From contig OZ024742.1 in assembly GCA_964016885.1 (NCBI GenBank), positions 152,396,001-152,460,000 on the forward strand: a stretch of DNA of 64,000 nucleotides, in the 5' to 3' direction. This DNA comes from Eledone cirrhosa. Its lineage: Eukaryota. Position 1 is the stretch's first letter. Each line of letters begins with the position of its first letter. Made by a program: the position numbers and the translations under genes. Of this stretch, positions 2,466-60,567 are shown one piece after another. Below the pieces are notes generated by a model. That model saw only the letters and a program-made list of their open reading frames with translations. It did no database searches and was not told the origin of the DNA.

Positions 2466-3047
2466 ACAAAATAAAAAACATATATATATATATATATTTA
2501 TATACATATATTTTGTTTTTATGTATGTATAGCGTCAATAAAATATGATAAGATATATAAGACGTTTAAAACAATGGTATAGAGGCATTGGCTGCTCTTA
2601 TTGAGAAGTGACGCCATTAGAGAACAAAAACCTATTTGAAGTGATGCTTCTTAACAATAGAGCAAATGGATATGTCCAATTATTTCCTAAGGTAATAGAA
2701 TTAAAATCTCTCAACAAATCATCGATTCATGCTTAAAACACAATATATAGTTAGCCAGTATTTCTTTCTTTGTATTTCTTCTGTCATCTTTCTGTCTATC
2801 ATTATGATTTCCTTAATTTTAGTTTTGGCTGTTAATACATATTGTCTCTAAAGAACATGTTTTATTGTATTTAAGATGCCATAAAACAACAGGGATAAAA
2901 AGTTGATGCACTCAGATCCTTATAAATTTTTGTATCAACTGTCGGTTGTATAACATACATTTGATGAATATATATATATATATATACATATATATAATGA
3001 TATACATATATATACATATATATATACATATATATATACACATACAC

Positions 3048-3185
<138 letters not shown>

Positions 3186-3186
3186 T

Positions 3187-3255
<69 letters not shown>

Positions 3256-3421
3256 ATATACATATATACATATATATATATGTATATATACATATTGTTG
3301 GTTTTCGCTTCTGTATCTTTTATATCAGTTACTTTATTCGGTCCTCAATGTTTACCATTGACTGACCAACGGTAAAAATTACAGATATAATATAGACACA
3401 AATACGTATATATAGTCGAAG

Positions 3422-3460
3422 AAAGTTCTTTCGTTGCACTTCTGCAACATCGTCAGTGGT
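3422..3460 (-). ncRNA. Minimal HHR-like motif
   Basis: Reverse complement reads CTGACGA-t-gttgca-gaag-tgcaac-GAAA-gaac-TT. Same GAAAGAACTTT end as 20179-20221, but helix I is poorly paired. Confidence 0.55.
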
Positions 3461-3507
3461 GCTATTATGTTCCTCCTGTTGTATTGTATATCTACGCCAT
3501 CTTTTGG

Positions 3508-3557
<50 letters not shown>

Positions 3558-3587
3558 TATATATAATTAAATAAATATTTAATTTTG

Positions 3588-3650
3588 TATTTTATCTGAT
3601 GAGAACGTGCCACACTTTTTGGTACCCTTGATATATATATAATATAATAA
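3588..3650 (+). ncRNA. Degenerate HHR relic
   Basis: tattttat-CTGATGA-gaacgtgcca...tggtaccctt-GATA-tatata-TA-atataata. GAAA is mutated to GATA. Confidence 0.35.
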
Positions 3651-3692
3651 ATATGGTTTTATAAATATAGTTTCCATTTATTAATATCACTG

Positions 3693-3727
<35 letters not shown>

Positions 3728-3788
3728 AACGCAAAAAATGAATCGAGATTTCATTTCTCACTCTTAGTACGGCTGTTACTTAAATATA

Positions 3789-3870
<82 letters not shown>

Positions 3871-3884
3871 ATATATATGTATAC

Positions 3885-3921
<37 letters not shown>

Positions 3922-3946
3922 GTATATATATATGTATATATATATG

Positions 3947-4013
<67 letters not shown>

Positions 4014-4042
4014 GTATATATATATATATGTATATATATATG

Positions 4043-5144
<1,102 letters not shown>

Positions 5145-5183
5145 ATATATATATATATAATGTATAATAAACAATACAATATA

Positions 5184-5259
5184 ATTACCTCATGACCAGA
5201 GGTTTCCCGAATAAGACGAATACGAAAAACGTCCTCATTCGTTCGTCGGACAAGGCAAT
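5184..5259 (-). ncRNA. Hammerhead ribozyme in the 3' pLTR of PLE #1
   Basis: Reverse complement reads ttgccttgt-CCGACGA-acgaatgaggacg...cgtcttattcgg-GAAAC-ctctg-GTC-atgaggtaa. 9-bp helix I with wobbles and a GUC cleavage site. Confidence 0.85.
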
Positions 5260-6510: not shown

Positions 6511-8085
6511 TTATGGAGGATAAGTATCTGAAAGTGAGTTAAGTTTATATGAGCTGGAAAGCAAGTGTGATTTCATGTGTGGGCAACTGGTGAACATTTC
6601 TGTTTTTATATTTAGGCAGGTTTTTGGTGATTTAAGGTTCTGTAAAATCCAATATTTTTCACTTATGCAGAGTGTGCATCTTCTTGTTCCTCTTGCATAT
6701 TCTTTAGATTGGTTCAAAATTGACCAATCCAATTTATATTGGATAACTTGGTCTTTCAAATCCCATATTCTGCTAGCCAGAGCTGTTGTGAATCTTTTGT
6801 CTGGATGTCGGAAAGATGCAACATGTGAGTAATAACGCGTTTTGAATTTGTCTTGTGTCATACCCACATATCGTTCGCTGGTGGCTAGTTGGTTGTTGCT
6901 GATGGTTGTCACTTTAGCCGTACATACAATGGCTTTGGTGTGCATTTACCTTGTAATGGGCATTCACTTTTGTCTCTACAGGAGCAATTTTGATGTTCTC
7001 TGGGTGATTTCTTATTGATGATATAAGATTTAATAGGGGGACCGCAGGAGTAGCAATTTTGACACAGTTACTATTGAAGATCTTATAGTATCTATGTGTT
7101 CTAGGGAAATGTTTATCTAAGAGCTCCAGGAATTTTTTGCCTACATTAGTTTTAACAGCTATAGAGTAGGGGGTGTGAACCAGATTATTTTTCTTTTCTA
7201 TTATTATGTTTAAAAGAGTTAGTATTCTTGGGTATGTACTTAATCGGTTCTCTAAATCCGCTATTTTGAAGGGCTTTATTATAGTAGGGGGATGCCTTAT
7301 TGAAAATAGCTTCTGAGGAAGAGAGGGTGGAGATCCTACGGCTAATATTAGGGATACAGTTTTTAAAAAACTATAGGAGGATGGCAAGAGCCTCTATGTA
7401 TATATTTTAAATTTTCATTAGGTTTATGGTATGGTTTATAAGAAGCAGTAGGCAGATCTAGGTTTATATCTAGAAAATTAACATTGGAAAGGTTAGTGTC
7501 AATAGTAATTTTAAGATTAAAACTAGCGAAGGTTTTTATTAAGTCTTTCCTTAATCTATCTAAGTTATGGCCTATGGTGGTATGGGAAAGTATTAGACCA
7601 TCCTCGCGATAAAGCCCAAAAATATGGTTTATGAATTTTTCTTTAAGTGTGTGTAGGAGGAATAGCCCGACTAAATCACAAACATCAGCACTGTCAAAAG
7701 AACCCATTAAGACATCGATTGGGTTCTCTGGGTTAGATATTTTTACCCAAGTGTCATTATCAGTAAAGAGTAGAGCGTTTCTAGCATGCAAGATGGCATT
7801 CTCTTCAATATCAGAAATATTGGTAAACTTTCTAGCGAAATTTAAGGCTTTCGCTAAAAGAGTCTGAGTGATAGACGGGTAGAAATCTACAATGTCAAAT
7901 TGGGTGAATCTAGAACTATTTTTATCTTTAATATTATTAAACCAATGTACTGCGGAAGAGCTATTTATCTATTGGAGTAATTCAGACTTACTTCTAATCT
8001 GTGTGTTTATATTATTTAACATTTTTTTGCTGGCAAGACCGATATCAGTCTTAGCAGGGTTGATTAATCTACAACTAGGACGATT
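6511..8085 (-). pseudogene. Frameshifted PLE RT + GIY-YIG endonuclease
   Basis: Motifs FDIVDFYPSI, MGSFDSADVCDLVG, LYREDGL, VNFLDINLDL, CSCRDKSECPLQGKC, YVGMTQDKFKTRYYSH and CTLCISEK. Confidence 0.92.
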
Positions 8086-8662: not shown

Positions 8663-8699
<37 letters not shown>

Positions 8700-8714
8700 C
8701 GGGTGGAGCATATA

Positions 8715-8763
<49 letters not shown>

Positions 8764-8768
8764 TCCAC

Positions 8769-8909
8769 CCGTTTCAACAGCTAGATCTAGCTGTTGAAAC
8801 GGCCAGAGCTCGGCCGAAGCTCAGCCGTCGGGGTCCTGAACGTTTTCGTATCACTACCCTATCGTGTACTCTGGTGAGCAATATTCTAACTGGTTTTTAC
8901 TACCTCCAT

Positions 8910-8912
<3 letters not shown>
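8769..8912 (+). mobile_element. Family X fold-back HHR-half element
   Basis: Palindrome ccgtttcaacagctagatctagctgttgaaacgg, then ...ctcagccGTCggggtcc and a tail homologous to 19220-19318. Confidence 0.7.

Positions 8913-8947
<35 letters not shown>

Positions 8948-19046: not shown

Positions 19047-19050
<4 letters not shown>
17432..19050. mobile_element. Family Y array: ~1.7 units on minus (17432-18345) plus ~1.3 inverted units on plus (18372-19050)
   Basis: Period of 530 bp (17441 vs 17971). HHRs at 17485-17567 (-), 18015-18098 (-) and 18798-18880 (+). Confidence 0.88.
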
Positions 19051-19109
<59 letters not shown>

Positions 19110-19118
19110 TATATATAT

Positions 19119-19315
19119 ATAGGAACGAGTAGGACCCCGACGGCTGAGCTCAAGCCGTTTGGACGGCTAATTCTGGACGTCCAGAATTAACCGTCGAAAC
19201 GGCTCGAGCTCAGCCGTCTGGGTCCTACTCGTTCCTATTACCCACTCTAATACCCTAAGTATTGACTACTTTCGTGCGTTATGGTCAACCTGGTTCCTTA
19301 CCACATTTCCTTCGT

Positions 19316-19318
<3 letters not shown>
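19119..19318 (+). mobile_element. Family X fold-back element (~58-bp arms plus tail)
   Basis: Hairpin centred on ctggacgtccag. Right arm reads ccgtc-GAAAC-ggct..agcc-GTC-tgggtcc. Flanked by (TA)n. Confidence 0.8.
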
Positions 19319-19962: not shown

Positions 19963-22900
19963 CATTTCTGAATTTGTTTAGCAAGATTCTTTATCTGAAA
20001 TCGTGTGTTGAAACCGATATTGTTATACTTTGGGAGGGTCAAGTTGCCAATAAGAAACACTCGCACAAGTTGCTTTCACTTGAATTTATTATAATAAATT
20101 TATAAATTTAGGAATTTATAAATTTATAAATTTCGGGTTGGTTGTTTGGTTCCACAACCAGATAGTTGTTTATATATTGTCAAAGTTCTTTCGTCACACA
20201 TTCTGTGACCTCTTCAGTGACTGGGGATTCTTATCTTTGTTTTTGTGCCTCTCCTTTGTTCTGTCCTACGCCATTTTGTTTCTGTGTGTGTGTTGCGTGC
20301 TCAGTCTGCGCATGCGCAACATCCGGGTGTCTGTGAGTGTTTATATTCGTTTATTTATTTGTTTATTTACATGTTACCGGTTGGTTGTTTGTTCTATGTG
20401 TGTGTGTGTGTTTTCATTTTGTCCTTCATTGTAAGTTGTGATGTTGCTGTTCCACTCATATTTTCTATTTAATTTTGGTTGTAATTCTTTTACGTTTATT
20501 GCCTCTGTGATTTGTCTAAACATTGCGTCTTTTCTGTGTGTAGATTCTATTTTTATTTCTATGTTCTCTAATTTACCCTTATGTTCTATTTTAGCATGTT
20601 GGTAGAGTACAGATGATTCTTTAATATCTTGAAGCTCTCGCCAGTGTTCATTTATCCGTTCCCCTACACTACGAGCTGTCTCCCCTATGTACACTATATT
20701 TTTGTCTCTACATTGTCCTTCAGTAGATCTTATGCTATACACTACATTTCTAGTTTTACAGTTAATATGGGGGCTTAATTTAGAGGTTATACATTTCTTA
20801 TCTATACAGGGGGTTCTTTGAAAAGGGTATGTCTTGCTAATAAGTGTTTTACGGAGGTACCTGGTCTTTCTACTATCTTAATATTGAGTTTATGTTTATA
20901 TAGGGCCCTTCAAAATTTGTAAGCTAATTCACCTCTAGGGGTTGTATCGATGAACATTACACTCTGGTATTTATTACTATTATACCATGAGTTTATTCTA
21001 TTAGCCTTATTCCTAGTTCTTTCTATTCTATTCCAAAATTTGCTCCTATACAAGGGGCAGGTCCCATTTGTGTCATTATTTACCATTTTTCCCCATTTGG
21101 TTCTGGCTCCTCTATACACTCTGATTTTATCTCTCTGATTGTAACCAGAGAACTGCATACGGTGGATGAAGTGTTCTATGTGTCTCTCTAGTTCTTCGGG
21201 TTTGCACATGCGGGATACGTTTCTTATCAGCCGTACCAAATCCGCAATTAGTATGTTGATTTTGGTATGGTCCAAAACAGCCGAGTTTCGGTGGATCAGA
21301 TGTTTGGAAGTCATGGGTTTGGCATAATGGGAATGGAGGATTTGTTTGTTGTTATTAATGGTATCTAACCAGAGCTCTGTGTCTAGTACAGGTAATCGAT
21401 GGTTTGGGTGTTTTCTTGGGTAGTCTATAGTAACTCTAATACGCTGGTGGATTGAGTTAGCTATTTGCTGGATGCTTTCCATTGTGTTTTTCTCTAGTTC
21501 CTGACTGTTCTCTAGTGGGGGTGTCTTAACTACGATGTTTATATCATCAACGTAGCGGGAGTACATTATCAGGGTTAAGGGGTCTTCTAATTGTTCTTTA
21601 AGTTTAAGTTTAAGTCAACTGTCCCACCATACTATGAATAAGTTAGCTATGTCACCTGCAATGCTAACACAAATGGCTGCTCCTTCCTCTTGGGCATATG
21701 TTTTTCCATTAAATTTGAACATATGTTCCTTAAGGGTTAGTTTTATGCTGGCTCCTACCGCATGTGCAATCATTTTCTTCAGTTCATCGTTGTTTTCGGG
21801 TGTCCATGTGGCTCTGGTCCACCCGTTCCATCTATCTGTGTCGGGTTTCTTGGCCATTGAGGTAATGGTAGGTGGTCTGCCTCTTGCTGGTCTTGTAGGG
21901 CACAGGTTGCTAAGGTCATATGTCTCTAGGTAATTATTACTATAGATAAGTTTAAGTAAGAATCCCAGCTCACTGGTATCAATCCCACGGAACTCAACAT
22001 TGCTCTCACTGATCATTTCTACGCATTTCTCCACAGCAAAATCCACGTCAATACATGGATACAGGGACACAACATCCATACTACCTATTATGCAGTTTGT
22101 TAGGTCCCTAGATCGGTTATTCCGGCCGATTCTGCTGAGGAGGTCCTCCGTGCTGTCCCATACATCTGGGGACATTTCAATGATGGGGCGTATGATCAGG
22201 GAGAAGAAGTAGGACAGCCTCTAGTTACTAGCAATGTTAGCTCCACAGACTGGCCGTGTTGGTGGTCCCGTGTCAGGGTCACTGCCCGTTTTATGGTCTT
22301 TTCGAGGCCCATACAACGCCGGCACGTCATTGTTCCAGGCTTGGAAGTTGTTGGCAGTACTTTTATTGGGCTGCATTATATTCGTCCACATCACCATATG
22401 GGCATTGAGGGCTTTTTCTCTATCCTCATGCTGCTGTGGTGTTACCTCTCCTGTGTTAGTGATGTGGGGTTGCATTGCCTGGATGTAGTTTGGTAGGCTG
22501 TCAACCGACATTCTGCCAGACTTGTCTGTTGGAAAGCATGCTATCTCTCCATCACGCGAGCGCTGCATGAGCTTACGCAAGCCATTTGCAGATTTTTCTC
22601 CCAGTGGTTGGGCTTCCATTCTATTATGCTTCTTGCTATACTGTTCTATAACATTTCTAAGTTCGGATCTAGCTATACTAAATTGTGCGTCTGTTTGTTC
22701 ATCGACCTGCGACGGCAATTTCGTACGTTTGTTAATTGGTAAAGTCGTGGCGTGGACTCGTCGCAGGTCGAAGGACTTATCGGAGGGATTATAAAAAGTA
22801 GAGTTCCAGGCTGCTGCTTTATGTGTACTAGTGCTATTGTTATTGTTAGTTGTGTTGTTTCTATTTATATTTCCACCAACATCCTCATGGTTGTTTCTAT

Positions 22901-23650
22901 GTCTCACATAATTACTCATGTCTCTTTCCACTGGCTCATTGTTATTATCTACTCTATTGTGTATGTATGTGTGTTCGTCTTGGTTATTTTCTTTGTCCAT
23001 AGTCTCCCTTCTCCTTTTAATCCTATTACTTTCCCTTATTTCTGTGATTTCTGTGCTACTGTCATTACTTGTTTTCTGTGTCTGTGTGTTTGTTAAGATT
23101 GTGGTGGTGGTGAGAGGCATTGAATGTGTGTGTGTTGTTGTTGTTGTTGATGTGTGCTGTTGTTGATGTGTGCTGTTGTTGATGTGTGTTGTTGTTATTG
23201 TCTCCGTGATGTTATTATTGTTGTGTGTGTTGTTATTGTTGTTTGTGTCTGCGTGTCTGTTGTTGTTGTTTCTGAGTATTATATTATTGTTGGTGTGTGT
23301 GTTGTTGTTATTGTTGTTTGTGTCTGTGTGTCTGTTGTTGTTGGGATGTGTTGTATATGTGTGTGCGTATGTTGTTACTTTTGTTTTTGTTTTTGTTTTT
23401 GAGGCTCCAACGTAATTTTGTAAATGAATTTTTCTATTTCTGACAGACAACTAATCATATTTACCTTCTTGAATGTCGCAAATTTCGGTGGTAGAAGTAA
23501 TACAGATAATTCAACAGGGTCTATTGCCGTGTTGCCGTATATATTTGTGTTGTTGTTGTTGTTGAACTCATCTGTTAATGAGGTGTCGGCCATATTTATA
23601 CCGTCAATTTAGTCGGGATATCTATTGGTATTCTCTACAGTATCCTGATT
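19962..23650 (-). mobile_element. PLE #2, near full length, frameshifted
   Basis: Motifs PTDKSG, PPTRPVCGA, SMDVVSLYP, YSRYVDD, LPVLDTEL and VYIGETARSVGERINEH. Asn/Thr microsatellite expansion in the N-terminal part. Confidence 0.92.
20179..20221 (-). ncRNA. Minimal HHR in the 3' end of PLE #2
   Basis: Reverse complement reads gtca-CTGAAGA-g-gtcaca-gaatg-tgtgac-GAAA-gaac-TT-tgac. Confidence 0.75.
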
Positions 23651-24281: not shown

Positions 24282-24990
24282 AATATGAATATATATATGT
24301 ATATATATATATGTATATATATATATATGTATACATATATTTATATACACACATACATTATACATACATATATATATATATGAATATATATATATGTATA
24401 TATATAAGTATATATATATATGTATATATATATATATGTGTATATATATATATACACACACGCATACACACACACATCTATATTTATACACGCACACATG
24501 TTTTTACAACCTACCACCTTTCACACCCTTTGTTTTCCAGCTTCTACAGCTCACTATCTTTCACACACACACGCACTCACACATATACACACACAGTTAC
24601 ACACACATGTATACCCATACACTTACACACACACATCTATATTTATACACGCACACATGTTTTACAACCTACCACCTTTCACACCCTTTGATTTCCAGCT
24701 TCTACAGCCCACTATCTTTCACACACACACACACACATATACACACTTACATTTATACACACACAGTTACACACACATATATATTTATACACACATATTT
24801 TACGGCTTTCACACGCTAGCGCACCCTCTTGATTTAACCCATTTGGTCAGTAGCTTTTGCCACAGCTTATCACGCGCACGCGCATTCTTTCCCTCGTTTA
24901 AATTTTAAATAATTCTCTCCCCATAACGGCATTCCTGTCTTAACGACATCACAACTTTCTCCGCTTGGCCTGTTCCCCCCCTTTTGGAAC

Positions 24991-25028
24991 TTCCCCCGTT
25001 GATGGGCGTGAGCCCGAAATATTGGGAT
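24991..25028 (+). ncRNA. Variant HHR in PLE #3 5' pLTR (same motif at 28420-28457)
   Basis: tccc-CCGTTGA-t-gggc-gtga-gccc-GAAA-TA-TT-ggga. GNRA-capped helix II, non-canonical 5' core. Confidence 0.6.
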
Positions 25029-25192
25029 TAAATCTCCACTACGGTAACCCTTCTACCTTTGTTTTGTTTTCACCTTTGTCTCTCTCAATTTTCACTTTCA
25101 CCTGTTTCTCCTATCTATCATTCACTTCCTACCTCGAGATTTCCCTCTGCATTGTTGTGGCTTTCTTAACTACGTATTTTACACATTTCACA

Positions 25193-27839
25193 ATGCTTCA
25201 AGCAAACTTTAACACCCTCTTATCATTACACCTGAGCCAGGACTTGTTTGCACCCATAAGGGACCTATTCAGACTATCGGAGAATCGTGCCAAACTCGGT
25301 TGCCAAATTACCTTCTTAAAACGCTGCCTAAAGAACAACATCATTCCAACCACCATCAGGAATATACATCTACCCGAATGTTTACGATCACCATCCTTCG
25401 AAAACACCATCCGCCACATTCAACGCACGTTTATCAAGAAAATACTACGACACAACCACCACCAACTGCGACTCCATATACAAACGCTTTCCGAGCACAT
25501 AGATCGTATAGCTCCAACCCTCACCCCTGACCACCAGGTGCAGGAAATACGCAAAGCTATAGATCAGTGTTACCACACCAGAGTCAAATATGATAAACAG
25601 CGCCTTATACGGAAATACGAATGGACTGTAAACAAATACTACAATGACAACATCCGCTCCCACAGACTGACCGATTACAACCACACCAGGGGCAACAGCT
25701 ATACAACACCCTCCGCTACACCCCCCAACATCGATCTACCTACCAACGATGCTTCACACCTCGTTACCGACCTAACCGGTACCCTCACCAACGACGAACT
25801 CGAACTTCTGCGCCTCGGACCCAAGTTCATCATTACACAGCGTCTCGATGATAGACTGAAACTCGACATCGAAACCAACTTCTGTCGGACAGCATATCAA
25901 CTGAAATGGCTAACCGCCATCCAAAACAACACCGAGATCGATTACAACCCCACAATCCACCCCACACTCCCCACGTATCACCTCGACAACCCACTCCACC
26001 CCCCACCCACCAACCACGAACTTGATACTAAACTACTCAGGTTGAAACATTCTATCTCTAACATCCTTTCCCAACACACACACACACAATAAACGCAACC
26101 TCACCAATGCACAATTTAATACTCTCACCAACCTAAGATCCAGGAACCTTGTGTACCTTCCCTCTGACAAGGGGAAAGAATTCTGTGTCATCTCGAGAGA
26201 GACCTACAACAACTTAGCTCTCCAACATCTTAATGACCACAGCCTCTACTCGAAAGTCACAGGGACCTCCTCGACTCTAATCGAGGAAGGCATTAACACC
26301 ATATGGACTAACATCTGTGTCCAACGAAAACTGCCAAAGAAGGTAAAAAAACCAAAAAAAATCCAACATAATGACTCGAAACAGCAAACTACCCACCTTC
26401 TACCACCTGGTTAAAACACATAAACAAGGACCCGATTTGAAAATCAGGCCCATTGTCTCTAGCGTGGAGGGCCCACTCTACAAAATATCGTGGCTGCTCT
26501 CCACACTACTGAAACCCATTCCACACACACTACCAGCCCACGTCTGCAGCTCAAAGGAGGTCTTGGAGCGACTACACCATCTGGAGCCCAACACCAGAAA
26601 GGACAACGGTTATGCCTTCAGTCTTGATGTGGTCGCCCTTTATACCTCCGTACCAGCATCCCCAGCTGTCGACCTGTTGACCGAACGAGTCCGAGCATCT
26701 AACTTACACTGCTTCGGACTCACACACACGGACATCCACCAACTCCTCTCCTTCGTTGTGGATAATGCACTCTTCAATTTCCTCGGCCACACGTATAAAC
26801 AAATCTCTGGGCTACCTATGGGCTCTAGTCTGTCCGGCATACTTGCGATCTCGTACATGGACCACCTGGAACGCAAGGCACTCAATACCTGCCAACCCAA
26901 CGCCGTCGCCTTCTACTCCAGATACGTTGATGACATCCTGATACTTCTTCCCGTGAGATGGCGAATGAAATTCACCAAATCTTCAACGATACTGACCATC
27001 ACGTCGATTTCACCATCGAACACCCAGGAGAAGACGGGTCACTCGCCCTCCTCGACTTCCGTATCAACATCTCAGAAGAAGGAGACATAAACACCACCTT
27101 CTACCGCAAAGCAGCGTGCAAGGACTTATTTGTGCATTACAACTCAGCCCTCCCCAACAACGCTAAGAGAGGCTATGTCCTAAATGAACTGACACGGATC
27201 ACTAACAGATGCAGCGACCCGATGGGTGGTCTCACCCATACCACGCAATTCCGTAATCTACTCAGATCTAATGGTTATCCCAAGCGACTGATTATCGGAA
27301 TTAGAGACCCCAGACCCAATAGACACCCACCCACTAGAAACTTAAATAAAAGCAGGTGCTTCTTTAAAATCCCCCACCTGAGTGAATATACCACGAACGC
27401 CATCCGCAGGGCCATACGGACGGAGGGACTTGACATACATTTGGCCCACACAGGACCTTCGCTGCGAAGATGCCTCTCCAACAAACCCGACCAGTCAGAT
27501 GGGACGTGTTCCCTCAGCAACTGCCCGATACGGGGGGCAGATTGCCTACGCACCTATGTCGTATATAAGATTCAATGCGATAAATGTAACAAGTTTTACA
27601 TAGGTAGCACCATCCGACCCCTACATGTTCGTATCAAGGAACATATCAACACCAACGCATCTTCCTTCCGTAAAAACATCCTTAAATGCGGAAACCCACA
27701 GCGTAGACCCTTGGTCACAGTCCTAGCGACTGAACGCAGCATCGGATCCTTAAGGATAAAGGAAGCACTTGTTATTAAGAACCTCAGACCCCCACTTAAC
27801 AACCGGGCTGAGAGAAATGAGCTGACATGGCTAACTTAA
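25193..27839 (+). pseudogene. PLE #3 ORF (RT + GIY-YIG) with about three frameshifts
   Basis: MLQANF start; motifs PSDKG, LVKTHK..IRPIVS, SLDVVALYTSVP, GLPMGSSLS, YSRYVDD, VVYKIQCDKCNKFYIGST and EALVIKNLRPPLN. Confidence 0.95.
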
Positions 27840-28896: not shown

Positions 28897-29085
28897 TAAC
28901 GAAGGAGTTGTGGTAAGGAACCAGATGGACCATAAGGCACCAGAGTACTCAATACTTAGGGTAGTAGAGTGGGTAACTGGTAAATGTATGACCCCGATGG
29001 CAGAGCTCAAGCCGTTTCGACGGCTATTTCTGAGTCCAGAAATAGCCGTCGAAACGGCTTCAGCTTTGCCTTCGGGGTCATACAT
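28897..29085 (-). mobile_element. Family X fold-back element (~50-bp arms plus tail)
   Basis: Hairpin atgtatgacccc...gccgtttcgacggctatttctg / cagaaatagccgtcgaaacggc...ggggtcatacat. Tail homologous to 19237-19318. Confidence 0.8.
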
Positions 29086-31350: not shown

Positions 31351-32072
31351 TATGATGTATTTTATATTAACAATGGAAGACTAGGTGTTGTTTATAATAT
31401 ATTGACATTTCCCATTCTGCTCGTTGTGAGATATTTATTTTACGACATATTGTCCTTCACAAACCTAATATAAACCAATTCAGTGTGTCACAGAAAAATA
31501 TGCATTATATCTAACTTGACGTCTAGTAATGAAAAGAAACTGAAATAAATACAGAGAAAGATATATTAATTCAGAATTATAAGTCAAGTGTCTCCCGTCA
31601 TATACAAATAGAGGTTATTTATCAAATTGCACCAGCTGAATGTTTGAATATTCCTAAACCTAAGAAATGTCAGTCAATTGGTAAGTATCTTCTTCCTGCA
31701 AATTTTCGTTTTCATTCATTGATTAACGGGCTTTTCTAATTTTTTTTTCTATGTGTGTATGTATTTGTAGATTAGTGTGATGGGTGTTCTTCTTCGTTGC
31801 TGAACATTGCACTGGAGTTTATCACCAGACGTCAATAACAAATGGCATTCTACATTCGAAGTTCTTATTAGAAAAGGGGGAAAAATCGCTGAGGCATGAA
31901 GGAAGAATATTTATCATCGAGGCTTTTACTTATTACATCCATTTCACACTCGAATGATCCCCACGTTGTGATCTTTCATATTCTAACTTTATCTGTATCA
32001 TTTCATTTCTTTTTTTTTTGTTATTTATTAGTTGGTCTTTGTTACCTTATTTAATTTATATGGTTGAAAATA

Positions 32073-32138
<66 letters not shown>

Positions 32139-34665
32139 GAGGAACTGAAACAATAACCATAGAGGAACTGAAGCAACGCATTGTAGCAAAGAGTGCAAAA
32201 ATCAGGCGATACGAGAACAGAGTCAGTCAGTATACACAGAACCGCATGTTCGACAACAACCAGAAGATGCTGTTTGGACAGCTTGAGGGGAAAGAAAGAG
32301 GCAACGACTTGATCCCTGATGCGGAACAAACTAAAACATTCTGGAGAGGAATATGGGAGCAGGATGTTAAACATAATGACCAGGCAGTGTGGATTGAGAC
32401 AGTACAAAAGGAGATTAGTGAACAGGCACACCAAAAAACTGATTAGAGTATCACAGTTGAAACTCTTAAGGGGCAGGCCAAAAAACTAACCAACTGGAAA
32501 TCACCAGGCCCAGATGGTGTGCAGGGGTATTGGATTAAAATATAACATCCCTCCACCCGAAACTGACAACCATGTTCAATGTCTGCTTGATGTCAGGTGA
32601 GGTACCAGAGTGGTTGACAAAAGGTACCACAGTTCTGGTAATGAAAGACCGAATCAAGAGTAATGATGTTACCAACTATAGACCTATCACATGTCTGTCC
32701 GTAATGTGGAAACTGCTGAGAAGCATTATGTCTGAGGAAATCTACCATCACCTCCACACAAACAACTTGTTACCGGACGAACAGAAAGGATGCCGAAAGA
32801 AGTCACGTGGTACAAAGAACCAGTTACTTATTGATAAGATGGTAATGAGGAATTGCAAAGAGGAGACACACTGGTCTTGCCATGGGATGGATAGACTACA
32901 AAAAGGCATTCGACATGTTACCTCATTCTTGGATAACCAAAAGCCTGGAGATCTTCAAGGTGGCAGATAACATCAGACATTTGTTGGGCAAAAGTATGAA
33001 GTCCTGGGAAACAGAGTTAACATCAACTGGAGAATCCTTGGGAAGCGTGAAGATCAAGAGAGGTATCTTCCGGGGAGATAGTCTGTCCTCTCTGTTGTTT
33101 GTCCTTGCCCTGATGCCCCTGACCAGTGTACTGCGAAAAGTGAGAGCAGGATATAGGTTGGGAAAGGGAGGGCTTACCATCAATCACCTCCTCTTCACGG
33201 ACGATCTTAAGCTATTCGGGAAGAGTGAGAAGGAGTTGGATGTGCTTGTTGACACTGTCCGTATTTTCACCAATGATATATGTATGCAATTTGGTATTAG
33301 TAAGTGTGGAGTCATTGAGATGAAGAGGGGTAAGTTGAGCAGAAGTAACGGAATCCAGGTACCAACGGGTGAGATGATAAAGGAAATTGACTCTGAAGAA
33401 GGATACAAGTATTTGGGCGTTCTGGAGGCTGATGACATCAAGAACAAAACAATGAAGGAATTGATAAGAACTGAATACATTCGGAGAGTAAGGAGCGTAT
33501 TAAAGTCACATCTGAACAGTAGGAATGCCATAAGTGCAGTAAATTCCCGAGCTGTGTCTATTATGAGTTACAGTGCGGGAATTCTGAGATGGAATGTTGC
33601 TGAACAGATAGAAATGGATAGGATGACTAGTAAGCTATTGACTATCTACAACATGTTCCACAAGAGGAGTGATGTCGATAGACTCTACTTAAGGAGATCT
33701 GATGGTGGAAGAGGTTTTATCAGCATAGAGGACTGTGTTCAGATGGAGAAAAACAACCTACACAAATACGTGACTGATAGTAAGGAGCCAATGCTCAGAA
33801 CTGTGCTGAAGGAGAGGACAATAGGCCAGGGGATGTCCAAGGAGGAAATAACATCAAGGAGAAAGAGCAGCTTTCAGGAAAAATCCCTTCATATTACCTT
33901 CTTTGAGAAAACTGAATTTAGAGTTCCACAGACATGGAACTGGTTGAAAAGAGGAGACCTTAAAAAGGCTACAGAAGGAATGTTAATGGCTGCGCAGGAG
34001 CAGGCCATCAAAACGAAGTTGTTGAAACACCATATCTACAAGGAGGAGGCTAGCCCACTGTGCAGGATCTGTGGAGAGAGAGAGGAGATTGTGGCTCACA
34101 TTGTATCCGAGTGTAAACACCTAGCCCAGACTCACTATAAGGGCTGGAGACATGATGTGATGGGCAGGGTGATCCACTGGCACCTATGCAAAGTAAACAA
34201 TTTACCACATTCTGAGAAGTGGTATGAGCATAAGCCAGAGTCGGTGATAGAAAACGATGAGGTGAAGGTGCTGTGGGATTTTAGGATACAGACGGACAAG
34301 AAACTGGAATACAATAGACCTGACCTGGTGGTTTTGGACAAGGGAAAAAGATCAAGAGAAGAGAGGGAGAAAATTAACCGTTACCAGGACTTAAAGTGGG
34401 AGGTAAAAAGGATTTGGAACTGCCATGAGGTCAAAGTTGCGCCTATTGTCATAGGCGCATTAGGTACTATCACAAAGAGTTTCAAGGGATGGTTAAAAAA
34501 AATTGCTCCTGCCCCGCTTTTTAGAACACTTTAAAATGCATGCTTGCTGGGAACAGCAAGAACCCTCCGATACGTCCTGAATATCTGAGGCTGCAGGTAG
34601 TGGCTTGATATTCATTTCAACAAACTTTCCAGTTAAATAACACCAATGACTGAGACTCAAAGAAC
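32139..34665 (+). mobile_element. R4/Dong-like non-LTR retrotransposon, family A, 5'-truncated, in (TAA)n
   Basis: KSPGPDG, NYRPITCL, WIDYKKAFD, HLLFTDDLKLF, CRICGEREE..HIVSEC zinc knuckle, RHD and REL RPDLVV. TAA repeats on both sides. Confidence 0.93.
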
Positions 34666-34696
<31 letters not shown>

Positions 34697-34698
<2 letters not shown>

Positions 34699-35450
34699 TT
34701 ACCAAGCCAATATAATAAAAAATGGATGCAACCCAATATGCCGTGTATGTAAAAAACAACCAGAGAGCATTGATCATATAATTTCAATGTGCAGTCCTAT
34801 AGCTCCAACCGAATATCTAAACAGGCATGACAGAGCTGCACAATACTTACATTGGATAATGTGTAAGCATTTTGACCTGCCCCATGAAAAAAATTGGTGG
34901 GAGTATCAACCACCTCCCATACTTGAAAAATATCACATCTCAATCTTGTGGAACTTTAGCATGCAAACAGACCGAAATATAGATGCAAATAGACCTGATA
35001 TAATACTGAAGGACTTTAAAAAGAGGGTATGCCTGCTAATTAATGTGTCCGTTCCAATAGACAAGAATGTATCTATAAAAACATTTGAAAAATTGAGCAA
35101 GTATAAGGACCTGGAGATAGAAATTGGAAAAATGTGGAAATTGAGAACTAAAACAATACCAGTGGTTGTAGGCGCTCTAAGAATGATACCTAAGGGGTCT
35201 AATTATTACTTATCGCAAATCCCAGGAAACCCGCGTATAGGAGAAATACAAAACATTATACTAAAGGGAACTGCCCATATACTAAGGAAGATTCTGTCAA
35301 TATAAGTACATCACAAGTCTAAACACCTAAAGATGCATGTGTGTGTATGTATGTTCTTTCTTGATCATGGCGGACCTTGTTGTCTCTTGAGGTCACTGGT
35401 TGTCACTTGGTGATAACTCGTATGAACATAAAGCAAGATAAATGCAACTG
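34697..35450 (+). mobile_element. R4/Dong-like family B, 3' fragment
   Basis: CRVCKKQPESIDHIISMC, RHD, RPDII and EKLSKYKDL; same family as 56015-59795. Confidence 0.92.
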
Positions 35451-38700: not shown

Positions 38701-38972
38701 CGCTCCTCTCAACTTTTACGTCGTTGTCGCACGACAGTAGACATATCGCTGGGAGGCATGGCTCAGCCATGTTTTTTTTTTTCGATAATTGTTAAAAATG
38801 TAAAAAGTTCAAATATCTGGGCCAAAAGGCCCAAATATTATACTTTCCCTCTCACAGGGCAAAGTCCAAGGGCTTATATCCCTTACACATCAACAAAATT
38901 AATCAGTAAATAAGTTTTGACAGGTAAATAAAGATACTTACTAGGGCGAACAAAAAGACGTCCGTTCAGACC
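35764..38972 (-). mobile_element. Tx1/L1-clade retrotransposon with internal deletion (ORF1 start joined to RT and C-terminus)
   Basis: SPGLDALPYELY, NFRPITLLNTEFKILAKVLA, LDQSKAFNRV, RQGALSP and C-terminal CPTC..ETVLHAFVAC. Asn/Thr-rich ORF1 start at 38335-38770. Confidence 0.88.
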
Positions 38973-39017
38973 AATAATAATAATAATAATAATAATAATA
39001 TTAATAATAATAATAAT

Positions 39018-39106
39018 GATTTCTTTATTAACCACAAGGGTTTACATAAAGTAGACATTAAGGACAGTGCTGGACAATGCAGGACGGTGCAAATGGGCAT
39101 TTCTGC

Positions 39107-39139
<33 letters not shown>

Positions 39140-39150
39140 CAGAGGATGTA
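39018..39150 (-). mobile_element. Tx1/L1-like 3' terminal fragment
   Basis: Matches 35475-35590. Confidence 0.8.
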
Positions 39151-39173
39151 TTAATAATAATAATAATAATAAT

Positions 39174-41653
39174 TGTTCGACAACAACCCAGAACCGCATG
39201 TTCGACAACAACCAGAAGATGCTATTTGGACAGCTTGAGGGGAAAGAAAGAGGCAACAACTTGATCCATGGGGCGGAACAAACTAAAACATTCTGGAGAG
39301 GAATATGGGAGCAGGATGTTAGACATAATGACCAGGCAGTGTGGATTGAGACAGTACAGAAGGAGATCGGTGAACAGGCACACCAACAAACTGATTTGAG
39401 TATCACAGTTGAAACTCTTAAGGGGCAGGCCAAAAAACTAACCAACTGGAAATCACCAGGCCCAGATGGTGTGCAGGGGTATTGGATTAAAAATATAACA
39501 TCCCTCCACCCGAAACTGACAGCCATGTTCAATGACTGCTTGATGTCAGGTGAGGTACCAGAGTGGTTGACAAAAGGTACCACAGTTCTGATAATGAAAG
39601 ACCGAATCAAGGGTAATGATGTTACCAACTATAGACCTATCACATCTGTCCGTAATGTGGAAACTGTTGACGAGCATTGTGTCTGAGGAAATCTACCATC
39701 ACCACCACACAAACAACTTGTTACCGAACGAACAGAAAGGATGCCGAAAGAAGTCACGTGGTACAAAGGACCAGTTACTTATTGATAAGATAGTAATGGG
39801 GAATTGCAAGAGGAGACACACTGATCTTGCCATGGGATGGATAGACTACTGAAAGGCATTTGACATGGTGCCTCATTCTTGGATCACCAAAAGCCTGGAG
39901 ATCTTCAAGGTGGCAGATAACATCAGACGGTTGTTGGGCAAAAGTATGAGGTCCTGGGAAACAGAGTTGACATCAACTGGAGAATCCTTGGGAAGCGTGA
40001 AGATCAAGAGAGGTATCTTCCAGGGAGATAGCCTGTCCCCTCTGTTGTTTGTCCTTGCCCTGATGCCCCTGACAAGTGTACTGCGAAAAGTGAGAGCAGG
40101 ATACAGGTTGGGAAAGGGAGAGCTTACCATCAATCACCTCCTCTTCATGGACGATCTTAAGCTATTCGGGAAGAGTGAGAAGGAGTTGGATGTGCTTGTT
40201 GACACTGTCCGTATTTTCACCAATGATATATGTATGCAATTTGGTATTAGTAAGTGTGGAGTCATTGAGATGAAGAGGGGTAAGTTGAGCAGAAGTAACG
40301 GGATCCAGGTACCAACGGGTGAGATGATAAAGGAAATTGACTCTGAAGAAGGATACAAGTATTTGGGCGTTCTGGAGGCTGATGACATCAAGAACAAAAC
40401 AATGAAGGAATTGATAAGAACTGAATACATTCGGAGAGTAAGGAGCGTATTAAAGTCACATCTGAACAGCAGAAATGCCATAAGCGCAGTAAATTCCCGA
40501 GCTGTGTCTATTATTAGGTGCAGTGCGGGAATTCTGAGATGGAATGTTGCTGAACAAAAAGAAATGGATAGGATGACTAGTAAGCTATTGACTATCTACA
40601 ACATGTTCCACAAGAGGAGTGATGTCGATAGACTCTACTTAAGGAGATCTGAGGGTGGAAGAGGTCTTATCAGCATAGAGGACTGTGTTCAGATGTACAA
40701 AAACAACCTACACAAATACGTGACTGATAGTAAGGAGCCAATGCTCAGAACTGTAATGAAGGATGGACAATAGGCCAGGGGATGTCCAAGGAGGAAATAA
40801 CATCAAGGAGAAAGAGCAGCCTTCAGGAAAAATCCCTTCATAGTACCTTCTTTGAGAAAACTGAACTTAGAGATCCACAGACATGGAGCTGGTTGAGAAG
40901 AGGAGACCTAAAAAAGCTACAGAAGGAATGTTAATGTCTGCGCAGGAGAAGGCCCTCAAAACGAAGTGGTTGAAACACCATATTTACAAGGAGGAGGCTA
41001 GCCCACTGTGCAGGATCTGTGGAGAGAGGAGACTGTGGCTTACATTGTATCCGAGTGTAAACACCTAGCCCAGACCCACTATAAGGGCTGGAGACATGAT
41101 GTGATGGGTAGGGTGATCCACTGGCACCTGTGCAAAGTAAACAATTTACCACATTCTGAGAAATGGTATGAACATAAGCCAGAGGCGGTGATAGAGAACG
41201 ATCAGGTGAAGGTGCTGTGGGATTATAGGATACAGACGGACAAGAAACTGGAAAACAATAGACCTGACCTGGTGGTTGTGGACAAAGAAAAAAGATCGTG
41301 CCTGATTGTGGATGTGGCCTGCCCATTCGACACGAGAGTGCAAGAGAAGGAGAGGGAGAAAATTAACCGATACCATGACTTAAAGTGGGAGGTAAAAAGG
41401 ATTTGGAACTGCCATGAAGTCAAAGTGATCCCGATTGTCATAGGCGCACTGGGGACTATCTCCAAAAGTTTCCAGGGATGGTTAAAGAAAATCGGCCCTT
41501 TCACGCTTTTTGGAACGCTTCAAAAGGCATTCTTGCTGGGAACAGCAAGAACCCTCCGATACGTCCTGAATATCTGAGGCTGCAGGTGGTGGCTTGATAT
41601 TCATTCCAACGGACTTTCCAGTTAACTATCATCAATGACTGAGACTCAAGGAG
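39174..41653 (+). mobile_element. R4/Dong-like family A copy 2, 5'-truncated, with stops and frameshifts
   Basis: GIFQGDSLSP, HLLFMDDLK, RPDLVV and IVDVACPFD; same 3'UTR as 34590-34665. Confidence 0.93.
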
Positions 41654-46886: not shown

Positions 46887-47127
46887 AAAAAGTGGAGAAT
46901 AACATGGTCAACAGTACAAAAAAGGGAACTGTTTCCGATGATCTAGTATAGTTAACATCGTATTTAAAATTGAGTGGCACTGTTTTTAGTGTTCAGCAAT
47001 TTTTAGACAACTCTATCAGTGAAACAATTGTTAGACTGCAAATTAAACCCCCTTTTTTGTACAATTAACCACATTATTTTCCACTTTTTCAATTTTATTA
47101 CTCCAAGATAAATTTACATAGGAATAC
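46887..47127 (+). ncRNA. Family Z copy B: HHR inside an inverted repeat, plus tail
   Basis: gttt-CCGATGA (46935)...GAAACAATTGTT (47021)-agac. Arms aaaagtggagaataacatggtc / accacattattttccactttt; tail cataggaatac. Confidence 0.7.
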
Positions 47128-47167
47128 AAGTGAAATCATAAACTCGTCATCCAAAGGGGAAGCAACA

Positions 47168-49530
47168 ATGCGGGAACCACCAGCAACCCAACAAATCTAC
47201 AACAACTCACGACGCCCCCGACCCTCCACAGGAGGAGACACAGAAAATCACGTGGTACAACTACTCTACTCAGCGGCCGTAAAGAACAGCTTGGGCCGAT
47301 CATTCTTTGGAGCACTTGATAAATGCTTCCCGAGGGACCATAGATACCACAAGATCTTCAACAGACACACTCTGATGCTCTCGTATTCCACCCCGAGAAA
47401 TCTGGCCCAATACATAGATAGCATCAACAGGAGTAGGCTTAAAAACCAGACACAACCAGAAGATGGCAATACAAGCACTCAGCAGAACCATGTGAAAGGA
47501 GGGAAGGAGGGATCCAGTTCCCACTCAAGAAACCCAAACAGACCCGGGGACCGCCCCACCGCGCCTGGCGGAAGACCACCATATAACACCTAACGGGAAC
47601 CCCAATCTAGACACGCAGATTCGGGGTTTCTGCAGTTGCAGAGGTAGACCACCCTCTGCAACTGCAGAAACCCCGAATCATACCCCCTTGGTAATGAATG
47701 CCTTAAGAAGAACCTAGTATATGGTGGTAGGGTTAAAACCCCCAACTCCGAACACCTCTACCATAGGAGCCACATCAACGAGCTTTAATTACCGCTGGTA
47801 TAACCATCGCCATTCCTTCAATAAGGAGGCCAACAGGAATACTACGGCTCTCTCCGACCTGATCTGGAAGCTTAACCTGGACAGGACCCCGTACTCTCTG
47901 GCCTGGTACATAATCAGGAATGTACCAACCGATAAAGGGGGATCTTGCATATGCAAACTATGTCTGAACGAGACCCTCGAGATACTAAGAGGTGGAAGCG
48001 GCCTGATAAACCTCAGAACCGACTTCTTCGGCACATGCAGACACCTCAGGGCCGGGACCTTCCTCAAGATATATGGACAGTAGCAACACAATAAGAGGTG
48101 AACTCCCCTCAAGCTATAGTGACTTCTCCAGAACATGTAGACACGTCTCGGCCAAACCTCCCTCAAGCTATATGGGCAGTAACAACACCATAGGTTGGGA
48201 ACTCCCCTCAAGCCACAGGGACCAACCCAGGCTGAGCTGACACCATGATAGCGTAGAGATTGATTCTGACACAGCCTTTATAATTTTGCTAACATTGTTA
48301 TAACATACACACATGTTAATTTACCTGATTTTTTATTTTTCAATTTTGATTTTTCATTATTCGTTTGTTATTTGTTTTCTGTTTTCTTCACTTTATCACC
48401 TTATATTTATATTTAAGTTGAGATTGGTTATAACACACACACATTTTATTTGATTATCCTATTTCGTTTTATTCTTTTACCACCTTGTTCCTCCTACCAA
48501 ACTATCCAACATATTTGTGACCTTGAGATTGGTTATAGCACACACACATTTTATCTTATTTTATTCGAATCTTCATTTTATTTTTCACTTTTCATTTTCA
48601 TTTTTCATTTTTCATTACTTTTTCATTACCTTTTCATTAATTTTTCATTTATTCTCTATCTATTATTTATTCTCTGCTTACTTCATTTTATTGCCTTCTA
48701 TTTCTTCATATACATGATAGAACCCCCACCACTACCCCGACCACCCCCACCCCCACGGGAGATGGTGGCAGGAGGGATGAAGAAACACACACACACACAG
48801 ACACTTCTAAATTGTCAGTAGCAGCAAGATATAAGCTGACCACAACACCAACACCACTACCAAAATAAGGGTAGATGTCTGATGTACTTAACAGTAGCAA
48901 ACACAAACACTACAGGGAGCCTCACCCAGAAAGAATTTCTATAGACTTTGGACTGAGGAATACTCTCAAAACTGACCAATGGGAAGTTTGACCTAACAAA
49001 TCTTTATTACATTGAGATGGGTATAACACACACACATTTTATTCGATTATTTTATTTTATTTTATTCCTTTACCATCTTATTCCTTCTACAACTTTATCA
49101 CTTTTTTTAGCTGACTCCAACAATAACACCAGTACCAACATAAGAATAGAGGTCAGATGTACCTAACAATAACAAGAACAACAACTACAGATGGGCTTGC
49201 CTCAGAACGAATTTCTATAGACTTTTGACTGAGGAATGTTCTAACAACTGACCAATGAGAGGAGAAGAGGCCCTTTGACACTGAAATTCGTTTGTTTGAA
49301 TTCATATGATTCCAGTTCCTCAGAGAAATAGCAACCCAACCAGGAATTGGGCATATCAGAGTATTGACAAAGTTATACACCTCAACAACATATGTACTTG
49401 TATATACCACACTAATTCGGACTGCCTGAAGAGGTCACAGCCAAAGATGGCTGTCACCGAAATATATATAACAGTAACAAACGAAGCCAAATTTTAAACA
49501 TTTGACTTATTTATTTCATTTTATTTTATA
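47168..49530 (+). mobile_element. PLE #4 (Naiad-type) 3' part: thumb, zinc linker, GIY-YIG and repeat-rich 3'UTR
   Basis: DKCFPRDHRYHKIFNRHTLMLSYS, CNCRNPES.PLGNECLKKNLVY, IGATSTSFNYRWYNHRHSF, CKLCLNE and CRH. Confidence 0.88.
49421..49475 (+). ncRNA. Hammerhead ribozyme at the 3' end of PLE #4
   Basis: actgc-CTGAAGA-ggtcacagcca-aaga-tggctgtcacc-GAAA-TATATA-TA-acagt. Confidence 0.85.
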
Positions 49531-59000: not shown

Positions 59001-59795
59001 CTTGTGTATTATCTTTTGGTTCTGATTGAAGTTCTGGATCTTAGGGAGGGTGTCTCGTTGCTCCATGTCAGATTCTTTCATTTTCATCCATTCGATCATA
59101 ATTTCATCCTTCAAGTTGGCAAGTTCATTCTCATTCATTTCTTTATCATTTACGATCTCATTATTTTCATTTGGGGTTTCATCTTGAGCATGCACTCCCT
59201 CCACTTTTTCGATCCTTTATTTAATTTGTTCTGTTGCCAGTGATTCCGCCCCAACCCTGGGATTCGAAGTGTTACAATTTACATCGTTTTCACTGACACA
59301 TGTTTCATTTTCCCTTCGCTGACTTTGTGCTAATAGCTTGATCTGATCAATTTCTATATCAGTTAGTAACTTTTTTCTTACAATATTTCTTCGTATATTG
59401 GCTAGTTTGTTACTGTCAATATAGCCTCTGTTTTCGGGCTGTTTCTTTTCCAGTTGATATATGTCTGTTCTGTATTCGATGTATTTGATGGGTAGTACAT
59501 GGCAGTGTAGAAAGCCTCAAGGAATTCTTTATTATCTTCCCTTGACCATTTTTCTCTCTTTTTTTACCCGGGTGACGGCCGATCCGGTATGAGATTTTAT
59601 CATTAGACATTTACTTTATTTTGTCGCGTTTTATCCTTATCCGCCAAGGGGTAATTATTTCGTGTTACCACGTCTAGAACGAGTGTCAACCAAGACTAGA
59701 GGGGTCGTTCTCCCCTAGAGACATGGCTATTCCCCGCGGCCGCCATCCCGGTATTTCTTGGTCACGGGCTTTTCTTTTTGTTGTTTTTTTTAAAT
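56015..59795 (-). mobile_element. R4/Dong-like family B, near full length, frameshifted
   Basis: ATG near 59610; KSPGKDKI, PKNYRP, HLFYMDDLKLF, LKSETEG, RHD and RPDII. Bounded by (TTA)n at the 3' end. Confidence 0.93.
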
Positions 59796-59926
59796 TGTTA
59801 TTATCATGAGTGGTTCCTTAATGTGAGCATTGCGTGGCTTAAGAATGAAATTATTAATAATTGTCTCCACTCCAGGCACAGGCCAGCAATCACCCAGTGC
59901 ATTACTTATTATTATTATTATTATTA

Positions 59927-60510
59927 CAGTTGCATTTATCTTGCTTCATGTTCATACGACTTATCACCAAGTCACAACCAGTGACCTCAAGAGACAACAA
60001 GGTCCGCCATGTTCAAGAAAGAACATACATATTCACACATGCATCTTTAGTGTTTAGACTTGTGATGTACTTATATTGACAGAATCTTCCTTAGTATATG
60101 GGCAGTTCCCATTAATACTATCTTTTGTATTTCTCCTATACGCGGGTTTCCTGGGATTTGCGATATGTAATCATTAGACCCCTTAGGTATCATTCCCAGA
60201 GCGCCTACAACCACTGGTATTGTTTTAGTTCTCAATTTCCACATTTTTCCAATTTCTATCTCCAGGTCCTTATACTTGCTCAAATTTTCAAATGTTTTTA
60301 TAGATACATTCTTGTCTATTGGAACAGACATATCAATTAGCAGGCATACCCTCTTTTTAAAGTCTTTCAATATTATATCAGGTCTGTTTGCATCTATTTT
60401 TCGGTCTGTTTGGATGCTAAAGTTCCACAAGATTGAGATGTGATCTTTTTCAAGTATGGGAGGTGGTTGATGCTCCCACCAATTCTTTTGATGGGGCAGG
60501 TCAAAATGCT
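59927..60510 (-). mobile_element. R4/Dong-like family B, 3' fragment
   Basis: Closely matches 56015-56600. Confidence 0.92.
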
Positions 60511-60534
60511 TATTATTATTATTATTATTATTAC

Positions 60535-60566
<32 letters not shown>

Positions 60567-60567
<1 letters not shown>

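Follow-up and report, generated by a model that had tools for sequence, protein, structure and literature searches.

Half-hammerhead hairpins in the Eledone cirrhosa genome as mirror-image stubs of a Hydra-type Penelope-like element, probably run off an RNA start inside its own ribozyme

The window analyzed here, a 64,000-nt stretch of Eledone cirrhosa DNA (assembly GCA_964016885.1, contig OZ024742.1, forward-strand positions 152,396,001 to 152,460,000), contains three hairpins built from half of a type I hammerhead ribozyme, all of which were confirmed by direct reading to lie beside or inside (TA)n. Copy 2 is inserted in a (TA)n target whose left side occupies 19050..19121 (unstranded) and whose right side begins at 19316. 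Its tail-less arm (19122..19178, minus strand) and tail-bearing arm (19179..19316, plus strand) meet at a centre between 19178 and 19179 and match over 60 bp with 4 mismatches, the outermost 3 bp being TA. The ribozyme 3' half, located by mapping from the fold of a parent copy (L121:2789-2910), spans 19184..19235 (plus strand) and comprises the helix II 3' strand (19184-19195), GAAAC (19196-19200), helix III (19200-19216), GUC (19216-19218) and the helix I 3' strand (19219-19235). It is followed by a one-sided tail of about 80 nt (19236..19316, plus strand), which lies between two putative priming sites. Positions with a sign are given relative to the hammerhead cleavage site; on this scale the tail-less arm appears to have been primed at site B (+17, the end of helix I) and the tail-bearing arm at site A (+98), and both run to -40, forming a blunt head-to-head -40/-40 join.

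Copy 3 belongs to the same family (X), with 83% identity to copy 2 over 190 nt. Its tail-bearing arm (28898..29032, minus strand) starts at -37 and its tail-less arm (29033..29085, plus strand) starts exactly at -41, giving a 50-bp arm and a loop of 4 nt at 29033-29036; the G at 29032 is an extra, cap-type base or else the first base of the partner arm. Copy 1 represents a sister family (Y) that has only short blocks in common with the other two. Its tail-bearing arm (8786..8914, plus strand; GAAAC at 8796-8800, GUC at 8827-8829) carries a short insertion in helix III and a diverged tail, and faces an inverted-arm remnant (8769..8785, minus strand) across a centre at 8785/8786, the arms overlapping at a self-complementary GATC. 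This copy has an arm of only 17 bp, as the outer part is missing and an inverted copy of the left flank takes its place, the flank being folded back around the TA run, as read directly from the sequence (8698..8773, unstranded). Short inverted repeats of this kind, with a TA centre, also occur in the flanks of four other loci (L083, L084, L097 and L115), suggesting snap-back repair at cut TA runs.

The original prediction for these hairpins, made from the letters of the window, agrees with direct reading on several points. The tail-side arm has the claimed order of helix II 3' strand, GAAAC, helix III, NUC and helix I 3' strand, the CUGANGA half is absent from all three copies (CTGA.GA scan), and the arm lengths differ much as had been stated (~17, ~58 and ~50 bp). 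The reported covariation at the stem base (aacag/ctgtt versus gacgg/ccgtc) is uninformative on pairing, because the second strand is only a mirror copy of the first. An Rfam search over the window returned no hammerhead at E<=1 and only low-scoring microRNA-type matches on TA repeats; no hammerhead match was to be expected, since each hairpin is half a ribozyme.

Other retroelement remains surround the hairpins. Broken Penelope-like ORFs of at least three families lie at 6511-7968 (minus), 20374-23450 (minus), 24944-27839 (plus) and 47069-48083 (plus), with a Pfam GIY-YIG match at 26934-27836. Another dispersed repeat, characterized by CTGATGA and a conserved downstream block, is present at 515 (minus), 17562 (minus), 18093 (minus), 18803 (plus), 24057 (plus), 50154 (minus) and 50536 (plus), and is probably a further Penelope-like element (PLE) pseudo-LTR (pLTR) with a canonical core. 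Decayed LINE copies with reverse transcriptase (RT) and restriction-like endonuclease motifs, which we take to be R4/Dong-like, are embedded in (AAT)n at 31958-35305, 38928-41577 and 56159-63303.

The hairpins are mirror-image stubs of the pLTR tip of an autonomous Hydra-type PLE. Exact matches to the 28-nt tail end number 17,545 in the genome (G000), compared with none for a reversed control, and the stubs number well over ten thousand copies, far more than the coding copies. In a sample of tail loci, consisting of the first 90 positions on one contig with one exact tail variant, some loci extend upstream, and one of them (L121) holds the whole element in the order pLTR-ORF-pLTR, including the complete ribozyme, so that the proposed origin in a PLE hammerhead region is upheld. 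Its ORF (2879-5236) is open for 786 codons, or 718 aa from the first Met, and encodes an RT and GIY-YIG-type protein. A Pfam scan of this ORF gave no family at E<=0.01; 2,058 full-length homologs were retrieved at E<=1e-20, the top one of which carries PF01541. The element has the layout of a stub, ending at B on one side and in an inverted 830-bp arm terminating at A on the other. In public-run data, the summed contig depth drops several hundred-fold past site A (L121:2849-2860 versus 2989-3000), and coding copies should therefore be a tiny minority of tail-bearing copies, depth being distinct from copy number.

Features described for the Hydra clade in parts of PMC8557442 include DKT, RW(R/K), a CxCX5C linker, and CxxC and CxH around a conserved E and N. 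The L121 protein shows, by eye, DKT, RWR (most homologs have RWK), the CxCX5C linker, CxxC and CxH, together with one cysteine inside the GIY-YIG core and no CCHH. The clade motifs were read in its homologs too, and by these motifs and its (TA)n preference the element matches that clade. It also carries the hallmarks of an EN+ PLE insertion, namely a single ORF between pLTRs encoding RT and, at the C-terminus, a GIY-YIG-type endonuclease, an inverted truncated pLTR, a one-sided tail and a hammerhead. Hydra-clade elements in the available sections of Craig et al. 2021 (PMC8557442) likewise have a single ORF of less than 3 kb, a hammerhead, a (TA)n target and the same motif set, whereas the element studied here differs in its U3-A8 or C3-A8 core and its long loop II. 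The hammerhead that the paper's supplement lists for Hydra-1_Obim has another sequence, and probing the supplement with two stretches of 10-14 nt from the present family gave no match.

A whole type I hammerhead is present in the long copies (fold of L121), with a folding-energy z of -0.43, so that the fold alone is not significant. Among 26 distinct long arms, the core is U3-A8 in 15, a C3-A8 mismatch in 8 and otherwise changed in 3; a U3-A8 variant has been described for Cercyon PLEs in the accessible text of PMC4209133. Helix II of the parent is real, showing a compensatory change between families X and Y, and its genuine 5' strand occurs only in long parent copies. Ribozyme cleavage was considered as the cause of the truncation described below and rejected, given that few arms end at 0/+1.

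The outer ends of the stubs are fixed. Arms start at A, the end of the 80-nt tail, or at B, each at a TA-like dinucleotide, and the outer end of the copy 2 tail-less arm is the same as in most of 62 paired copies. In 87 of the 90 sampled loci the tail ends by running into a TA run, and in the remaining 3 it reads on into the ORF, the tail being continuous with the ORF region in such read-through copies. A hairpin is predicted just downstream of A; folding a short stretch after B produced another hairpin, lying further along. Pairing of the two ends is near-obligate: an adjacent inverted tail-less B arm was found at 62 of the 90 tail loci and an A arm at 1. A second set anchored at the centre comprised 150 loci, reduced to 109 once read-through arms and duplicates were dropped, and contained 88 A+B, 2 B+B and no A+A loci, with 4 unclear and 15 without a partner; A+B thus makes up 88 of 90 fully classified pairs. 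Random pairing would leave the arms with at least two diagnostic differences in 70% of pairs; the observed figure is 3 of 52, and by these sites both arms of a pair come from one subfamily. A script test found inverted flanks on both sides of the stub at none of the 90 loci. One-sided tails are a known trait of PLE insertions in the portions of PMC8557442 and PMC3846280 available, and in vitro work described in part of PMC11167929 places the PLE tail between two RT start sites, with both target strands cut and extended.

The centres vary within narrow limits. Among arms reaching -33, 51 of the 58 that start at A and 51 of the 53 that start at B stop by -46, where about 3 would be expected from the downstream truncation rate, the -33 to -46 interval having been picked after the data were seen and 17 of the 90 loci corrected by hand; the uncorrected breakpoint run gives the same picture (44/50 and 41/42). 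Stops fall in loop II (-36 to -46) in 43 A and 42 B arms and in the helix II strand (-24 to -35) in 12 A and 14 B arms. The stop is hard, between -41 and -46: no sampled arm ends within -47 to -72, and the summed contig depth of the public run rises about 15-fold across it. Family Y, with a different loop II, behaves in the same way, 28 of 30 arms stopping from -35 to -43 around the A of TTAGTT, a count in which some loci are seen from both sides. Breakpoint pairs are distinct in 51 cases among the 62 paired copies, and the stubs are accordingly best regarded as independent integration events, as had been proposed. An ordinary MITE, or another self-amplifying non-autonomous element with a fixed structure, would account for many short copies with inverted repeats in a TA context, but the number of distinct centres, the asymmetric ends with a tail on one side, and the direct continuity with a retroelement ORF leave this explanation a negligible probability. 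Non-LTR retrozymes were likewise rejected as a candidate, as the ribozyme 5' half is present in 0 of 60 stubs, the arrangement is head to head, and tandem whole ribozymes are lacking.

The idea that the arms were joined through a self-complementary helix II, two cDNAs pairing by their complementary helix II strands so that the ribozyme helix would act at the DNA level in integration, draws on the reality of that helix in the parent and on breakpoints that do cluster beside it, far from random; this part of the expected enrichment at helix II was found, but most stops lie outside the helix, in loop II. For joining in this manner, one of the cDNAs must extend past loop II and enter the 5' strand. 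Neither that strand nor the 5' side of loop II occurs in any of 60 short paired copies, and hence helix II joining is not supported. The junctions point the same way: of 52 scored automatically, 20 have insertions, 13 overlap by 1-2 nt, 11 overlap by at least 3 nt and 8 are blunt, so that 41 of 52 are blunt, minimally overlapping or filled by an insertion, and annealing of helix II strands is very unlikely. Repeated short templated insertions at the palindrome centre were seen at six loci (L002, L103, L118, L147, L259 and L264), and presumably resemble the products of polymerase theta-type end-joining. Runs of 12-25 T just upstream of the stop, possibly reflecting RT stuttering at a template end, were noted at five (L089, L157, L167, L184 and L241).

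Two oppositely primed cDNAs, the first of the two routes envisaged in the original prediction, fit best with A+B pairing and two fixed outer ends. The other route, a snap-back in which a single A-primed cDNA folds near loop II and copies itself back to B, corresponds to the self-priming idea of PMC3846280, which, in the section seen, ascribed such palindromes to self-priming on an antisense template. It would account for the subfamily match of the two arms and for the microhomology of at least 3 nt at local palindromes in 11 of 52 junctions, copy 1 included. It fails, however, for the 15 of 62 copies whose tail-less B arm outreaches the A arm by 5 nt or more on the upstream side, for L121, whose B-ended arm is kilobases long against an A arm of 830 bp, and for junctions bearing an extra C on both arms (below), which require two run-off ends; it also leaves the fixed end at B unexplained. 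Antisense self-priming as set out in that source does not fit the stub junctions, and snap-back formation is considered improbable.

The innermost bases provide a further indication of what the stop represents. The A in TTAGTC or TCAGTC (TYAGTY) occupies position -41, and the motif matches the initiator TCAKTY at 5-6 of 6 positions; at the spacing set by -41, downstream promoter matches are partial (DPE 5/6, MTE 7/12), the consensus sequences being taken from a portion of PMC4581360. The base following -41 in cDNA sense was counted genome-wide as A in 12,686, C in 3,253, G in 3,139 and T in 650 cases; A and G there are parent bases, while C is found in 0 of 26 long arms. Counted one base earlier, C is the least common among the non-parent bases (1,079, versus 2,147 for G and 1,750 for A). 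Of 90 sampled C loci, 41 have a partner arm from which the C could have come, and a script found no partner source in the other 49; a stricter recount, with one duplicate and ten doubtful cases removed by eye, leaves about 38 of 89. Junctions with C on both arms and 0-6 bases between (twin-C) gave 134 and 135 strand matches, compared with 2 and 2 for twin-T, and all 10 that were checked are A+B. Family Y shows C in 322 and T in 83 cases at the same -41 A; G (457) exceeds C there and comes from the partner arm in most of 12 loci read. Addition of C by an RT is also possible where the RNA end is uncapped. This position-specific extra C points, as a sequence signature, to an RNA 5' end. By way of precedent, an extra G marks capped full-length L1 insertions in the relevant part of PMC11702581, and an internal Penelope promoter containing Inr and DPE is described in an excerpt of PMC2377424. 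A second start may perhaps lie at -45, where the reading is confounded by a G at -46 in 5 of 26 long arms; the cap test at that position (240 matches) was dropped for the same reason. An early test of whether two arms share a start (0/13 versus 7/10) is similarly confounded by G at -46, and in a larger sample the same-start test gave no support, 3 of 28 partners passing -41.

The stubs are thus likely to be head-to-head truncated pLTR tips made from two cDNAs that ran off a probably capped start in loop II. The main rival of this run-off reading is a structure-induced stop, in which the RNA extends upstream, RT is halted in loop II by the helix II hairpin or by a contact between loop II and helix I, and the cDNAs are end-joined. 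Consistent with such a stop, the apex loop predicted for the extended L121 helix II (family X; -49 to -46) adjoins the outermost stops, and relative to the ribozyme the stops of families X and Y coincide. A C-specific extra base at a single position is not something this model predicts, however. Only one family Y parent folds as a hammerhead, with its apex about 11 nt upstream of where arms stop, and arms passing -46 never end in -47 to -72. A structural stop is consequently judged unlikely, while still the most serious of the alternatives. A 3' splice site (TTTAG, -44 to -40) or a trans-splice acceptor could also be supposed to produce the stop, given a pyrimidine-rich stretch ending in AG at that point and the 5' introns of PLEs mentioned in the accessible part of PMC2377424. 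No junction read has a constant exon or leader before the stop, and arms retain the would-be intronic bases -41 to -45; no splice-type joint was seen in the public-run contigs, which are of unrecorded type and cannot show starts. Splicing is therefore a scarcely credible source of the boundary.

In the run-off model, Pol II would start at the initiator-like TYAGTY, with the A at -41 as the first base as judged from the scars left in DNA, and the 5' copy in the RNA would hold only the ribozyme 3' half. Sites A and B would then lie near the 5' end of the element's own RNA. Its enzyme would cut (TA)n and prime one cut end at A and the other at B, a single enzyme complex presumably making both cDNAs; both would run off the capped start inside hammerhead loop II, and the extra C may be a copy of the cap. 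Host end-joining repair would subsequently trim the ends, join them and close the centre. Long copies could arise from priming at A or B of the downstream pLTR in tandem or read-through RNA. In this scheme, the ribozyme 5' half is absent from stubs because it lies upstream of the RNA start. We lean, if only slightly, toward the fuller proposition that the PLE starts transcription inside its own hammerhead and that mass-produced, paired 'strong-stop' cDNAs on two (TA)n ends give rise to the stubs. If so, the ribozyme 3' half would double as the first 60 mRNA bases and perhaps as a downstream core promoter, self-cleavage would be disarmed at the RNA 5' end by a start inside the hammerhead, and both RT start sites would be within 140 nt of the cap. 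The stubs would form a genomic record of the start site, and PLE inverted repeats would have their origin in the head-to-head joining of two cDNAs copied from sense RNA and not in self-priming.

The class of element and the layout of its insertions are already known in print, and the system is of a familiar kind; the open-access literature searched yielded no description of capped run-off pairs or of such stubs. EN+ PLE insertions, as presented in parts of PMC3846280 and PMC8557442, are likewise head to head, with a tail on one arm, a junction palindrome (18 and 38 bp in Adineta), an initiator-like pLTR sequence and a microsatellite target. In contrast to those published insertions, both arms here are shortened to 60-140 nt, coding copies are greatly outnumbered by stubs, the tail measures about 80 nt and not 30-40, and the centre falls at one position with an extra base. 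Anolis Poseidon PAc, from a different clade, was studied in vitro and, in the text available from PMC11167929, resembles the present case in having a tail delimited by two internal RT start sites, which lie downstream of the hammerhead and near the 5' part of the RNA, in the cutting and extension of both target strands, and in the use of uncleaved RNA as template. Animal non-LTR retrozymes (bioRxiv 10.64898/2026.07.22.740005, in part) are similarly short, non-coding, type I hammerhead-related and derived from PLE pLTRs; they consist of tandem units with whole ribozymes and replicate through circular RNA, whereas the stubs are half ribozymes and one-off insertions. LINE-1 twin priming also involves two cDNAs from opposite target ends, an internal junction and an extra G at full-length 5' ends, as reported in sections of PMC11702581.

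The present stubs differ from L1 products in that neither start site varies and the two cDNAs overlap, sharing one end point. During L1 twin priming, the two cDNAs cover non-overlapping parts of one RNA, and the position at which the second primer anneals varies. The way in which PLE inverted-repeat insertions form was named as an open question in a passage of PMC8557442, and the stubs, as a large natural sample, speak for two sense-RNA cDNAs that were primed separately and joined at the RNA 5' end. As they predict an exact start site inside the ribozyme, this mechanistic question becomes directly testable. If correct, the run-off reading would account for the dispensability of hammerhead cleavage for insertion in vitro, described in part of PMC11167929, and would explain how genomes fill with half-ribozyme palindromes that are mistaken for MITEs or microRNA hairpins. 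Stubs often land in a TA run adjoining an older stub, forming clusters such as those at L004, L007, L008, L012, L019, L088 and L104, and L008 holds a recombinant between two subfamilies.
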